DNA from: a candidate division WOR-3 bacterium
GTDB taxonomy: Bacteria; Hydrothermota; Hydrothermia; B15-G9; WFZT01
NCBI GenBank assembly: GCA_027053075.1
Contig: JALUEE010000035.1
Coordinates: 1 to 16,722, forward strand
Reading direction: 5' to 3'
DNA length: 16,722 nt
Positions 6,394 through 16,722 of this stretch are shown here, piece by piece. Position numbers and translations under genes: made by a program. A model generated the notes under the pieces. The model saw nothing but the letters and a program-made list of their open reading frames with translations. It did not search any database and had not been told where the DNA came from. Numbering within the stretch: position 1 is the stretch's first letter; every line of letters starts with the position of its first letter.

Positions 6394-6506
6394 CAAATTT
6401 TTAAGAATTCCTTTCAACTCAATTTTTCATAAATAGGAGTCGAAGTTCCGCAGAGTAAAGGGACAAATGAGATTCTCGTTGTTTTAAATGTCCAGTAATT
6501 ATGTTA

Positions 6507-6552
6507 CCCCTCACCTCAATCTTCTCCCCGCAAAAATTTATGCGGAGGTGGA
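6507..6552 (-). repeat. Subfamily A hairpin + tail repeat
   Basis: CCCCTCACCTCAATCTTCTCCCCGCAAAAATTTATGCGG.. matches the reverse complement of 667-711 (CCCCTCACCTGACCTCTCCCCGCAGGAATTTATGCGG..). A further half-copy lies at 6635-6664. Confidence 0.75.
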
Positions 6553-6675
6553 AGTTTTCTTTTGCGAACGAGGTAGCAAAAACTTGAATATATAAAAGTC
6601 ATTTTCCAAACTTTTACATGGAATAAGTTCCAGATGTAGCGTCTCACCTAACCTCACCTCGCAAGCTCAAAATAG

Positions 6676-6745
6676 TCCCCACCCCCGCTTGCTTCGCAAG
6701 CGGGGGAGGGCGAGGGAGGGGGCATTCCGCTTAAAAACTAAAAAT
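6676..6745 (-). repeat. Subfamily B hairpin + G-tail repeat
   Basis: Stem CCCCCGCTTGC (6682-6692), TTC, GCAAGCGGGGG (6696-6706), tail AGGGCGAGGGAGGGGG, then CATTCCGCTT. A degenerate copy lies at 6825-6864 (GGGGCAATTCCGCT). Confidence 0.8.
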
Positions 6746-10041: not shown

Positions 10042-10903
10042 GTCCCACGTAACCGTAATCGAAGATCAACCTTTTGACGCTAAATCCAAAACCAAATGTA
10101 AACCTTCCTCTGTCAATTCCAATTCTGACTCCCGCATGCCTTTTAAATCGGTATTCGAAACCAAAGTGAGGCTCAAATGAGACACGACCGACATTATAAG
10201 TAGCACTCCTCTCTCTTCCTTCAAAATACACATCAAACTGAGTCCCAAGAACTATGCGTTTCTTAATCGTAGCTGTGGCCCCAAGGTTTATCGAGGGATA
10301 AACATACTCGCTATGTCCTTTCCAGAAAATGGGAGTTCCAGTGACATCCCTTAACACTATACCAAGGGCGAAAGGCCCGCTGGCTTTAAATATTCCCACA
10401 TCCAGGCCAAATCCATTTCCAGCAGTGACAGCGAGGTTTTCATGGAGAATTTTCAACTTTATCCCGGCATCGAATTGGGAGAATTTTTTTACAAAACTCA
10501 TCGTCACAAGAAAAGTTGAGTATGAGAGCATGTCTTTGATGTAAATATTACCTTCGGAAATCCCCTGAGCAGAATCTCTAAGAGCTGTTTCCTTTATGTT
10601 TCCAGCAGAGATTATGGAAATCCCAATAGCAGCCCCTCTCCCACTCTGGTTCCTTTTAGAAAAACCGATGAAATTATACGTGGCAAGACCGCTGAAAAGG
10701 GATGTGTAATTGAAAAGCCCGGTTTTACCTTCAGATATTAATGCGGGGTTGAAGTAAAAACCGAAGGGAGAGGAATTGAGGGCCACGCCAACTCCCCCGA
10801 ATCCCGTGGCCCTCACTCCTGGATTCAATTCAAATATTTCACCTGCGTATTTTGTTGCAAAAAGCGGTAAAGCTAAAAGTATCAAAAAGAAGGATTTTTT
10901 CAT
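9992..10903 (-). CDS. PorV/PorQ-like outer-membrane beta-barrel protein
   Basis: Signal peptide, KYAGE.F...PGVRA.GFGG..VA...NPA N-terminus, GFGLDVG, amphipathic strands, C-terminal Phe. Confidence 0.75.
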
Positions 10904-12300
10904 CCTTCAGCTTTGGCTTCCTCCTTTTGAGGAAGGTACTTGTCAATGTATTCTCTTCTAATACGGGCAAGCTCGGACCTCGGGAACATGGAGAGTAGCT
11001 CCCATCCCACTGCAAGTGTTTCTTCGATGGTCCTCGCCTTCTCACCCTGATTGATCATTTCCCATTCAAATCTTTCGGCAAATTTGAGATATTTTCTGTC
11101 AATTTCAGAGAGGGCATCTTCACCAACAATAGCCACAAGTCTTCTCATATCTTTACCACGTGCGTAAGAGGCGTAAAGCTGGTTGGCAAGCTCCCTGTGG
11201 TCCTCCCTCGTTTTCCCTTTCCCGATTCCAAGATTCATCAAACGGGAAAGTGAAAGGAGAACATCAATTGGAGGGAAAACACCGATTCTGTGCAATTCAC
11301 GTGAGAGTACGATCTGACCCTCTGTGATGTAACCTGTTAGGTCAGGAATAGGATGCGTCATGTCATCATCTGGCATGGTGAGAATGGGAATCTGTGTGAC
11401 AGAGCCCTTTCTCCCTTTAATCCTTCCAGCCCTTTCATAAATCGTGGCAAGGTCTGTATACATGTAGCCCGGATATCCACGACGTCCAGGCACCTCTTCC
11501 CTTGCTGCACCGATCTCACGCAACGCCTCACAGTAGTTGGTCATGTCCGTGAGGATAACAAGAACGTGGTAGTCAAGCTCAAAGGCAAAGTACTCAGCAA
11601 CTGTGAGTGCGTATCTTGGCGTAAGAAGCCTCTCAATTGTTGGGTCATCGGCAAGGTTAATAAACGCAATCAGCTTTGAAAGTGCTCCGGTCTTTTCAAA
11701 TTCCTGCAGGAAGTAAGTATACTCTCTCTGCGTAATTCCAATAGCTCCAAATACCACAAGGAATTCCTCACCTTCGCCCCTCACTTCAGCATTACGGATA
11801 ATCATTGCAGCAATTTCGTTAGCTGGCAGACCTGCGCCAGAGAAAATAGGCAACTTCTGCCCACGAACAAGTGTATTAAACCCGTCAATCGCAGAAATTC
11901 CAGTCTGAATAAAGTCTGAAGGCTTATCCCTTGCGATTGGGTTTATTGGTAAACCGATGATGGGCAATCTCTTCTCTGGAATAACAGGTGGAAGTCCATC
12001 AATGGGCTCTCCCCTTCCGTTGAAGATTCTACCGATCATGTCCCTTGAAACACCGAATCTCACCACGTCCTCGAGCAGTCTAATTCTTGTGGTCTTTACA
12101 TCAAGGCCAAGGGTACCTTCCAGAACCTGAATAACTGCATAGTCTTCAGTGACTTCCAGCACCTGGCCTGATTTCTTCTGATCTTCTCCAACAAGTATCT
12201 CTACCTGCGCGCCATAGGAGAGTTCTTTGGCCTTCTCAACAATTAAAATTGGTCCGGATATATAAGTTACGTTGGTATATTCCTTTGTGGTTAAATCCAT
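10900..12300 (-). CDS. atpB: V/A-type ATP synthase subunit B
   Basis: [72 protein letters not shown]-terminus resembles Thermus-type subunit B. Confidence 0.97.
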
Positions 12301-12333: not shown

Positions 12334-12362
12334 AGCTTAAAGAGTGTCCCTTTATATGTCAA
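12334..12362 (-). promoter_or_regulatory. Sigma70 promoter for atpB
   Basis: Minus strand TTGACA (12362-12357), 17 nt, TAAGCT (12339-12334); purine-rich RBS GAGGGAGAGG just before the ATG. Confidence 0.7.
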
Positions 12363-12370
12363 GCTAACAT

Positions 12371-12741
12371 GAGTGTGTTCGAAAATATCGCCTCTATTTA
12401 TCCTTTTGTGCAGTGTAAGTGAGGTGAGTAGAAATGAGATGTTAAAAATTAACTAATTCCAGATTTTCCAGTTTGAACATAATAAGTAGCAAAACTCCCT
12501 CCCTTCCTCTGGAAGGGAGGTTGGGGTGGAATGGAAAAAATTAATTTAACAAAGGTATCCAAGCATAATTAGGAATATTATTTCCTTGGATATTCTGAAG
12601 AATGTTAAACTTACCCCATTCTCCCCTGACCCTCCTTCCCGCAGGGAAGGAGGGGGAATTTACTAACTGATCTGCAATTATCAGTTATAAAGGCCCGTTG
12701 AACAAGGCAGGAACTAAAATTTGGATTTTTAGAACAACCTC
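12371..12741. mobile_element. MITE-like non-autonomous element (371 bp) with 15-bp imperfect TIRs and 9-bp target-site duplication
   Basis: Left end GAGTGTGTTCGAAAA (12371-12385); right end TTTTAGAACAACCTC (12727-12741; revcomp GAGGTTGTTCTAAAA). Flanked by identical AGCTAACAT (12362-12370 and 12742-12750). Homologous copy from 16277. Confidence 0.75.
12498..12654. repeat. Inverted doublet of subfamily C hairpin + tail repeats
   Basis: CCTCCCTTCC-TCT-GGAAGGGAGG + tail TTGGGGTGGAATGG, and the inverted unit CCCCATTCTCCCCTGA + CCCTCCTTCCC-GCA-GGGAAGGAGGG. Confidence 0.8.
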
Positions 12742-12942
12742 AGCTAACATGAGTGAGAATATTTTCAAACTTAAAATACTCCTTTCCCCGCTCAAATACT
12801 TGTAGGGAGAGAAGATTAAAGGAGAGCGACCACAGCTGGCAAAATTCCGATTAAAGTACATAAATCCGCTCTTCCACAAATTTAAAGAGGAGCAAGGTGA
12901 GGGTCAACATCTTAAAATTTCTAATCAAAAATCCTTCAATCT

Positions 12943-12978
12943 CCCTCTCCCGCAATCGGGAGAGGGGTGGGGTGAGGG
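12943..12978 (+). repeat. Subfamily A hairpin + G-tail repeat (canonical G4 pattern)
   Basis: CCCTCTCCCG-CAAT-CGGGAGAGGG followed by GTGGGGTGAGGG. Confidence 0.85.
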
Positions 12979-12999
12979 CTTTCATCTAAAATTTTTATA

Positions 13000-13057
13000 G
13001 ATTTTCAAGCGGAATGCCCCCCAAATCCATCCCCACTTGCTTTGCAAGTGAGGATGG
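13000..13057 (+). repeat. Subfamily B hairpin repeat
   Basis: TTTTCAAGCGGAATGCCCCCC leader; stem CCATCCCCACTTGC-TTT-GCAAGTGAGGATGG (13027-13057, one mismatch). Confidence 0.8.
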
Positions 13058-13126
13058 CGAACTTAGACCCAGCTATTCCACAAATGTAGATATAGAGAAT
13101 GATTTTTCGAACAGACTCTCCTTACC

Positions 13127-13155
13127 TTGACGGCATAGGGATGCGAAGTTATAAT
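13127..13155 (+). promoter_or_regulatory. Near-consensus sigma70 promoter for nfeD (probably leaderless)
   Basis: TTGACG (13127-13132), 17 nt, TATAAT (13150-13155), then 6 nt to ATG 13162. Confidence 0.75.
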
Positions 13156-13161
13156 CCCATA

Positions 13162-14424
13162 ATGATGGCATTTTTGCTGCTAATATTCCTCAGTGTGCCA
13201 AAGATTTTCGTCGCGGACTACCAGGGGATTATCAGTCCTATAGCTGCAGAGTACATGACTCGAGTCATATCAGAGGCTGAAGACTCCCATGCGGAATTGG
13301 TCATCTTTACCCTCGACACTCCCGGTGGACTCGATCAGTCCATGAGAATGATTGTCAAGAAGATAATGAACTCCTCGGTCCCCGTTTGCGTTTACGTCTA
13401 TCCTCCAGGGGCAAGAGCCGCTTCTGCCGGTGTTTTCATCACACTCGCAGCCCATATCGCCGCCATGGCACCTGGCACCAATATCGGTGCAGCCCATCCC
13501 GTATCATTTGGTCAAAAAATGGATTCCACGATGGTTGAGAAGGTAACCAATGACGCCGTTGCATACATAAAATCCATTGCAAAAGAAAGAGGACGTAACG
13601 AGAAGTGGGCAGAAGACGCGGTCAGAAAATCAGTTTCCATTCCCGCTGATGAAGCAGTGAAGAAAAAGGTTGTTGACCTCATTGCGACCAGCATAGATGA
13701 CCTGCTTAAAAAAATTGACGGTAGAAAGGTCGAGGTCAACGGCAGGACAGTGGAACTCCATACAGCCAATGCTCAGCTTATAAAGATTCATATGGGATTC
13801 AGAGAGAAATTACTTGCCATCCTCGCAAATCCCAACGTTAGCTACATTCTCATGATTCTTGGATTCTATGGCCTGTTCTTCGAGCTCTCGCATCCCGGAT
13901 CAATTTTACCGGGTGTCATCGGAGCCATCAGCCTAATCCTTGCTTTTTACTCTTTCCAGGCATTACCGGTTAACTATGCCGGTGTATTCCTCATTCTCCT
14001 TGCAATGATATTTTTCATCGCAGAGGTAAAGGTTCAAAGTCATGGACTCCTTGCAACTGGAGGTGTAATTTCCCTTATACTTGGCTCACTCATGCTCTAC
14101 AACACAAGTGCCTCATTTATGCGTGTAAATTATTCCACGATCGCAGTTGTCGTTGCATTGACCCTCGCCTTTTTCCTCTTTGTAATTGCCAAAAGTGTTG
14201 AGGCCCTGAGAAGAAAACCTGTTACCGGCTTCAATGGCCTCGTTGGTTTGAAAGGTATAGTCAAAACAAAGATTACCCCTGAAAAACCCGGCACAGTTCT
14301 TGTGCACGGAGAGCTCTGGACGGCAAAGTCCGGCCAGGTCATCAATAAGGGAGAAGAAATTAAAGTTGTGGATACAGAAGGATTCACCCTTATTGTTAAA
14401 AAATTGAAGGAGGAAGAAAAATGA
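13162..14424 (+). CDS. nfeD: NfeD-family membrane-bound serine protease (long form: ClpP-like domain, TM region, OB domain)
   Basis: LDTPGG, RAASAG (Ser), APGTNIGAAHPV, EKVTND (Lys), ELSHPG, GTVLVHGELWTA. Start moved to 13162/13165 because the ORF-track extension runs through the promoter and TIR. Confidence 0.93.
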   Translation: MMAFLLLIFLSVPKIFVADYQGIISPIAAEYMTRVISEAEDSHAELVIFTLDTPGGLDQSMRMIVKKIMNSSVPVCVYVYPPGARAASAGVFITLAAHIAAMAPGTNIGAAHPVSFGQKMDSTMVEKVTNDAVAYIKSIAKERGRNEKWAEDAVRKSVSIPADEAVKKKVVDLIATSIDDLLKKIDGRKVEVNGRTVELHTANAQLIKIHMGFREKLLAILANPNVSYILMILGFYGLFFELSHPGSILPGVIGAISLILAFYSFQALPVNYAGVFLILLAMIFFIAEVKVQSHGLLATGGVISLILGSLMLYNTSASFMRVNYSTIAVVVALTLAFFLFVIAKSVEALRRKPVTGFNGLVGLKGIVKTKITPEKPGTVLVHGELWTAKSGQVINKGEEIKVVDTEGFTLIVKKLKEEEK

Positions 14425-16276: not shown

Positions 16277-16517
16277 GAGACTGTTCGAAAATGTTCCCCT
16301 GGTTATTTTGTAGCTGTGAATAGATTGACCAGAAAAGTGAGGTCAAACAAGTTTCTTTAAGCATGTTAAGTAGCAAACTCCCTCCCTTCCGCTGGAAGGG
16401 AGGGTTGGGGTGGAATGGATAAATTTAGTGCTATGTTCTGGAATATCGATCCATTAGATATTCTAAAGATTGTAAATCTTACCCCATTCTCCCCTGACTC
16501 CTCCTTCCTCAAGGAAG
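16277..16517. mobile_element. Second copy of the MITE-like element (left TIR + subfamily C doublet), right part truncated or replaced
   Basis: GAGACTGTTCGAAAA at 16277-16291; colinear similarity to about 12371-12650, including TAAGTAGCAAA(A)CTCCCTCCCTTCC..GGAAGGGAGG..TTGGGGTGGAATGGA and CTTACCCCATTCTCCCCTGAC. Confidence 0.75.
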
Positions 16518-16524
16518 ATAACAA

Positions 16525-16634
16525 TAATATTTGTCAAGATTGATAATAACAGTGTCATAAAATCTGATATTACTGATATCGTAAAATATTTTTAACACTG
16601 CTTTCCATTGCCTTTGTGATTTTTGACAATATTA
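16525..16634. repeat. AT-rich nested imperfect palindrome
   Basis: TAATATTTGTCAA (16525-16537) / TTGACAATATTA (16623-16634); CAGTGTCATAAAAT (16550-16563) / ATTTTTAACACTG (16588-16600); GATAT/ATATC core. Confidence 0.55.
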
Positions 16635-16722
16635 CCCCCCTTTTAAACTGCTAAACTGCTGGACAAAACCTTAATTTTTTCCTCTTTCTGCCTGCCTAAA
16701 ATATGTTTACATCTGTTTCACT

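Follow-up and report, generated by a model that had tools for sequence, protein, structure and literature searches.

In the literature searched, the only bacterial elements described as targeting promoters are Mutator-like. According to the available parts of the sources, TnGBS, ISLre2 and ISKra4 elements (p-MULT 3/4) use sites that lie a fixed distance upstream of a sigmaA promoter (PMC3942029; PMC9208149), with 13-17 bp between the element and the -35 box and with 8-9-bp duplications, and those with near-perfect inverted repeats insert both ways; their transposases are Mutator-like, with an insert of 99-138 aa and a C/D(2)H motif (PMC3942029). The targeting mechanism of these elements is a proposal (Guerillot et al., 2014; PMC3942029). 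In the IS5 family, the miniature element MITEAba12 shares its ends with the co-resident ISAba12, is flanked by 9-bp duplications, and inserts into AT-rich targets without a sequence trend (PMC6382973), and the targets of ISAba13 are guided by H-NS (PMC11335895; ISAba13/IS903). ISTth7 is an active element in laboratory Thermus thermophilus and is listed in the ISH1 subgroup of the IS5 family (PMC6352166, Table 2), with an 8-bp duplication for ISTth7/ISH1 (PMC6352166); in the available part of that source the word “promoter” occurs 0 times and promoter targeting by ISTth7 is not mentioned. A promoter register for IS5-type elements was not found in the literature searched, and ISfinder or the original ISTth7 paper may describe it.

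The window analyzed here is the entire contig C35, 16,722 nucleotides in length, of G000, the 2.44-Mb source assembly (95% complete) of a candidate division WOR-3 bacterium. It contains a 371-bp miniature inverted-repeat transposable element (MITE), whose anatomy and internal hairpins are, on their own, unremarkable. IS5-family MITE anatomy is known; what was not found in the literature searched is the target rule, a register set by the -35 box. This fixed position against -35 boxes is the unusual feature of the locus, and it was overlooked by the original prediction. In the available parts of the sources on MITEAba12 and ISAba13 no fixed promoter register is described, unlike in the present family; in addition, MITEAba12 has one conserved 113-bp body, whereas the MITEs here carry several types of cargo.

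Anatomy of the element and its neighborhood

The features of the window are as follows.

10900..12300, minus strand: gene encoding subunit B of the V/A-type ATP synthase, the host gene that follows the targeted promoter
12334..12362, minus strand: putative sigma70-type promoter of the V/A-type ATPase B gene (TTGACA at 12362-12357, 17-bp spacer, TAAGCT at 12339-12334)
12362..12370, plus strand: left copy of the target-site duplication; on the minus strand, the -35 hexamer has its first T at base 12362
12371..12741, no strand assigned: MITE of 371 bp, in the 336-377-bp subfamily, supported by an empty site
12371..12385, plus strand: left terminal inverted repeat, on the promoter side; identical to the partner IS end at 13 of 15 bases
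12498..12532, plus strand: hairpin 1 with a G-rich tail, a cargo resembling BoxC/triplex motifs
12614..12654, minus strand: hairpin 2 with tail, inverted relative to hairpin 1
12727..12741, minus strand: right terminal inverted repeat; identical to the partner IS end at 12 of 15 bases
12742..12750, plus strand: right copy of the target-site duplication
12751..13118, no strand assigned: older element of another subfamily; left end worn, right end intact (13104-13118)
13127..13155, plus strand: promoter-like site of nfeD (TTGACG, 17-bp spacer, TATAAT; 11 of 12 positions)
13165..14424, plus strand: nfeD gene, a host gene
16277..16517, plus strand: second copy of the 336-377-bp subfamily, its hairpin 2 interrupted by IS110-like sequence (~16513-16722)

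The original prediction described a segment bounded by inverted repeats and flanked by a perfect duplication, and this description was borne out. The MITE occupies the gap between two divergent genes, V/A-type ATPase B and nfeD; it has inverted ends of 15 bp, which read GAGTGTGTTCGAAAA on the left and GAGGTTGTTCTAAAA on the right (reverse complement), and is flanked on both sides by a perfect 9-bp duplication, AGCTAACAT (12362-12370 and 12742-12750). No ATG-started ORF of at least 25 aa is present inside it. The empty-site allele sought in relatives exists in G004, a genome of the same genus, which has a single AGCTAACAT; contigs of two of the four sequencing runs compared (X2 and X7) also skip exactly 380 bases, and this evidence is possibly not independent of G004, which may share source material with a run. 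The 380 skipped bases (371 + 9) rule out a duplication of 14 bp; the direct repeat appears to be 14 bp because the MITE was inserted at the junction of the older element and abuts its worn left end.

The end motif recurs throughout the source genome, with 229 matches at no more than one mismatch (77 exact), compared with 24, 11 and 18 matches (2, 0 and 0 exact) in three shuffles. A duplication with at most one mismatch flanks 42 of the 388 facing end pairs, being 9 bp in 33 and 10 bp in nine of them; any other length between 6 and 13 bp is found in at most three pairs. In a set of 208 facing pairs, 17 have a perfect 9-bp duplication. The copies comprise 21 of 120-127 bp, four of ~350 bp, three of ~300 bp, six singletons, and eight duplication-flanked members of the 336-377-bp class, into which the 371-bp MITE falls. 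The exact end motif also occurs in all five other genomes of the genus, in all four of another family in the order, and in 11 of 41 genomes overall. Thus, further copies bounded by inverted repeats and duplications do exist, and these copies together with the empty site support the proposal that a DDE-mobilized MITE has carried hairpin repeats aboard.

The consensus scan did not list the putative ATPase B promoter, whose -10 box matches at three of six positions. Its -35 and -10 boxes are retained in four relatives (G001, G002, G004 and G005), with a variable spacer, and two of these four have other end-like sequences just upstream of the boxes. The right end of the older element lies 8 bp upstream of the promoter-like site of nfeD, in the same register, so that both divergent promoters in the window bear elements: a new MITE at ATPase B and the older element at nfeD. 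The older element, which is also present in G004, lacks a matching duplication, and its two ends abut different promoter targets. ATPase B and nfeD are adjacent in G000 and G004; in G001, G002 and G005 they lie on separate contigs with other flanking DNA. This difference among genomes suggests an element-mediated rearrangement. The ATPase B gene is preceded by a putative promoter of its own and followed by unrelated-looking genes, and no other ATPase subunit was recognized in the ORF list of the window.

The partner insertion sequence

A DDE transposase was reached by way of rare ends in relatives, and a search with that protein led to the partner. A full insertion sequence with the same ends, for which IS5 had been among the candidate families named beforehand, was found in G004 (L042) and is IS5-like: it is a complete element of 1,061 bp, with identical 15-bp ends, a 10-bp duplication and one ORF of 309 aa. 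The source genome contains two decayed, internally deleted copies of this type (C33, 85%; C75, 76%), and no intact partner transposase was found in that 95% complete assembly. The MITE and the L042-type element have no common sequence beyond their ends. Judging from these ends, a 1-kb IS5-like element probably supplied the transposase that mobilized the MITE in trans.

The L042 transposase has the residues D112/D188/E246, a triad that is invariant in all ten aligned proteins, and a YREK motif (Y239, R242, E246 and K253). PF01609 scores above its cut-off for L025, a homologue. Among the transposase profiles, NF033579 (IS5) is the best family, matched by all ten proteins at 104-107 bits against a cut-off of 140, and, for the IS4 family, NF033592 gives the partner 33 bits against a cut-off of 115. 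The nearest named relatives are ISAae1 (38% identity), annotated as IS5-like ISAae1 and the closest named protein, and ISTth7 (~27%). A homologue was matched by 274 representatives (50% identity clusters, E<=0.001), and the elements with homologous transposases are mostly 950-1,120 bp in length, with a single ORF of ~300 aa. The structure prediction is moderate (pLDDT 69) and matches generic DDE folds; its top Foldseek hit, the IS256-family ISCth4, reaches a TM score of only 0.46.

Similarly to the partner, ISAae1 of the Aquifex aeolicus plasmid ece1 and ISTth7 are ~1 kb in length, generate 9-bp duplications and occupy the -35 register; ISAae1 has nearly the same ends, whereas those of ISTth7 differ, and the partner clade differs from both in that its duplications range from 9 to 11 bp. 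The IS4 family, as described in the available part of its source, has the YREK motif, a size of 1,150 bp or more and the end signatures CAT, CA, CT, CW, -AATR and YT (PMC2266710); the partner shares the YREK motif, but its 1,061 bp and GAG ends fall outside this description. A fixed distance to the promoter is common to the partner and p-MULT 3/4. However, compared with the available descriptions of p-MULT 3/4, the partner has a D2-E spacing of 58 aa, a YREK motif and no C/D(2)H motif instead of the insert and the motif, and its end lies 8-10 bp from the -35 box, with the duplication overlapping that box, instead of 13-17 bp away. An unrelated DDE transposase of ~310 aa thus shows a register that is tighter than, and different from, that of Mutator-like elements.

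Other candidate partners in the source genome were set aside. The ends of the IS256 element at C46 differ; this element (L001:520-1718) contains an internal stop and is nested among transposase fragments. The four full-length DDE_Tnp_1 genes are not bounded by MITE ends, and the single DUF559 gene is surrounded by hairpin repeats, without MITE ends. A profile search found no DUF772 in G000; the UPF0236 profile also had no match there, but its positive control matched nowhere, so this result carries no weight.

Insertion register at the -35 box

Outward from 196 element ends in the source genome, TTGAC starts at position 9 in 26 cases and at position 10 in 14, and at every other position in no more than three. 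The register, and the -10 background comparison given below, were followed in 41 elements, namely the 42 duplication-flanked pairs minus one 93-bp pair. Some of the sites in the analysis are not independent: L100 and L125 resemble one site, as do L132 and L157. For 9-bp and 10-bp duplications alike, a TTGACA-like hexamer begins on the last duplicated base: a match of at least 5/6 is found there in 22 of the 41 elements, compared with 0-2 at each of nine other offsets (-4 to +5). In addition, TAnnnT lies exactly 17 bp beyond the hexamer in 21 of 41 elements (0-6 at other offsets), and a -10 box at 16-18 bp occurs on the promoter side in 26 and on the far side in three, the side having been picked by the -35 score. 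With promoters recognized from sequence and genes called as crude ORFs of at least 100 aa, the neighboring gene on the promoter side starts there in 30 cases, ends there in nine and is missing in two. The MITEs land in both orientations relative to the promoter. At two of the 41 sites the hexamer matches at no more than 2/6 and a -10 box is absent. A symmetric target of the IS903 type was not seen, the far side having no mirror motif.

The MITE family thus settles next to promoter-like sequences, against their upstream edge and always in the same position, and, with the mechanism left aside, the segment in the window is very probably a MITE with a -35-anchored target. Across the source genome, an element end lies 8-10 bp upstream of 56 of 339 strong non-coding promoter-like sites, so that the elements mark such sites at single-base resolution in uncultured lineages. 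Elements also stack: ten of the 16 back-to-back end pairs are 8-11 bp apart, which is about one shared duplication.

If insertion were nearly random and selection retained only the copies upstream of promoters, the survivors would be expected to be intergenic, as nearly all of them are (only three of the 41 lie inside crude ORFs), and TTGAC in coding DNA is indeed occupied at about the level of chance (15 of 4,567). However, selection cannot produce a single-base register, and the peak at offset 0 follows the duplication whether its length is 9, 10 or 11 bp, and stacked elements lie 8-11 bp apart; an account by selection alone is therefore very improbable.

The same register recurs in other lineages. 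Homologous insertion sequences were collected from 23 genome loci (Thermodesulfobacteriaceae and Thermosulfurimonas, Aquificota, a spirochaete MAG and one unclassified MAG) and 50 metagenome loci, and their ends were placed by motif anchoring for 108 distinct end flanks. TTGACA with at most one mismatch begins at position 9, 10, 11 or 12 in 8, 16, 15 and 4 flanks, respectively, a total of 43 of the 108, and at any other position in no more than two. A duplication is present in ten of the 37 listed pairs of full copies; the copies without one, in MAG and metagenome contigs, possibly reflect collapsed assemblies or rearrangement. Among 11 full copies with a 9-, 10- or 11-bp duplication, the hexamer matches at 5/6 or better in eight and at 4/6 or better in all, and a -10 box accompanies nine of the 11 sites, two of which may be one site. 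In Thermosulfurimonas dismutans the 5′ end of the transposase gene faces the promoter in all four duplication-bearing copies (L059, L061, L062 and L063); in the other members either end does so. ISAae1 on the Aquifex plasmid fits the -35 register. For ISTth7, 13 of 18 distinct plasmid sites, a subset of 94 listed places, are in register, 12 of them at 5/6 or better, and none uses any offset from -4 to +5 except 0; a 9-bp duplication was measured at 13 of the 18 sites, and position 9 was assumed for the five without a duplication. A -10 box occurs at only five of the 13 in-register ISTth7 sites, TAnnnT being absent at the other eight, and one insertion lies in register at TTGACG within the ago gene, with no -10 box.

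As the best explanation of these observations, we lean towards an IS5-like transposase that reads the -35 hexamer directly and moves the MITE in trans, with the hairpins as passengers. An arm of the transposase complex would bind a TTGAC(A)-like sequence, and the promoter-side cut would then fall between the first and the second T; the far cut would float, which would give duplications of 9-11 bp. Four points favor direct reading: the promoter-side cut is fixed inside a hexamer that sigma would be expected to cover, the far cut has no fixed position, the motif occurs on one side only, and -35-like sites with no -10 box are used by ISTth7.

The influence of the -10 box is more readily explained if the transposase is tethered at promoters by the sigma70 RNA polymerase holoenzyme, the register being the footprint of the polymerase, as proposed for the Mutator-like TnGBS/ISLre2 elements by Guerillot et al. 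Non-coding TTGAC sites are occupied at 38 of 186 with a -10 box and at 14 of 609 without one, about a ninefold increase, and the increase is larger for weaker hexamers. At sites matching at 5/6, a -10 box occurs in 13 of 15, compared with 132 of 850 (15.5%) in the most promoter-like background (p 4e-9), and at 4/6 in six of 13, compared with 263 of 3,839; at 6/6, on the other hand, the excess is not significant (5/7 compared with 95/177, p 0.30). The promoter-side cut also falls within the -35 hexamer, the presumed seat of sigma region 4, so that sigma, once bound, should stand in its way, and the ISTth7 insertion inside ago is in register with no -10 box. Tethering thus appears less likely than direct reading, albeit well worth consideration. 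A predicted complex of the transposase with sigma region 4 (score 0.02) carries no weight either way.

Direct reading is itself opposed by the -10 box, which matters more than the reading of a bare hexamer predicts, and is further qualified by the five of 18 ISTth7 sites that are out of register and by the confinement of MITE-IS identity to the ends. A mixed model of direct reading and tethering is possible. Under direct reading, the roughly ninefold preference for true promoters over bare hexamers would likely stem from the state of promoter DNA or from polymerase traffic, together with selection. Insertion would leave the -35 and -10 boxes intact, and the host gene would retain its promoter; only DNA upstream of the -35 box would be displaced, and several elements could stack at one promoter. 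Since ISTth7 shares the register and is active in laboratory Thermus thermophilus, the choice between DNA reading and polymerase tethering is directly testable.

The chances are evenly balanced that the IS5/ISH1-like clade of the partner, ISAae1 and ISTth7 evolved a sigma-mimicking rule, by which elements land flush against promoters and leave them unbroken. This would represent a second origin of promoter targeting in bacteria, independent of the Mutator-like elements. If so, the MITEs of this genus have taken about one-sixth of strong promoter-like sites, replaced the DNA upstream of them and joined unrelated promoters back to back.

Hairpins carried by the elements

As far as the available description goes, the hairpins resemble the BoxC/PIT/TMECO repeats (Holder et al., 2015; PMC4666352): both are intergenic, G/C-rich hairpin-plus-tail units, often in inverted pairs. 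TMECO was not found with mobile elements in the available part of that source (PMC4666352), whereas 55 of the 331 units detected in the source genome ride MITEs. The two inverted hairpins predicted inside the segment both fold as claimed, at -10.6 kcal/mol for hairpin 1 (12498-12520) and at -12.8 kcal/mol for hairpin 2 (12630-12654). The small GAATAT..ATATTC stem is weak: the fold predicted for this region, at -1.9 kcal/mol, is in a different register, and both arms are whole in only two of four aligned copies. Three Rfam hits, all far below gathering, give no support for a structured RNA.

The 331 units, of which 41 lie inside crude ORFs, compare with none in one shuffle. It had been proposed that these are functional REP/REPIN repeats, linked to HUH (RAYT) transposases and spread as cargo by a DDE MITE. 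MITEs do spread hairpins, in that the 55 units lie within duplication-flanked elements and 80 units are bordered on either side by facing ends, and the doublet arrangement is preserved in the 336-377-bp subfamily. However, 164 units have no element end within 400 bp, elements of G002 and G003 have the same ends with different hairpins between them, and the complete insertion sequence shares no inner sequence with the MITE. REP/REPIN units carry a GTAG/CGTC tag directly 5′ of the hairpin; here no tag abuts either hairpin, GTAG occurring several bases before arm 1 and not at all before arm 2. In addition, no Y1_Tnp (RAYT) gene was found in any of the five genomes of the genus (MAGs, 85-96% complete; control positive in 6 of 14). 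The REP/REPIN-RAYT side of the hybrid is thus not supported, and the hybrid as a whole is improbable. More likely, the hairpins are cargo that the MITEs picked up from a BoxC-like repeat family dispersed through the genome.

The single DUF559 gene (L007; C26:16548-17018) lies within a dense run of hairpin-plus-tail units and might have a connection with the dispersal of the free hairpins. Further units of this broad family occur in other intergenic gaps of the window at 461-509, 667-716, 6500-6740 and 12942-12983. The hairpins of the MITEs also act as landing sites for an element that we take, from its translated sequence, to be IS110-like: at the end of the window, where its sequence matches 11 other contigs, and at C14:7052-8919, where a ~1.7-kb element containing a long ORF interrupts a MITE of the 123-bp type that is still bordered by a 10-bp duplication.
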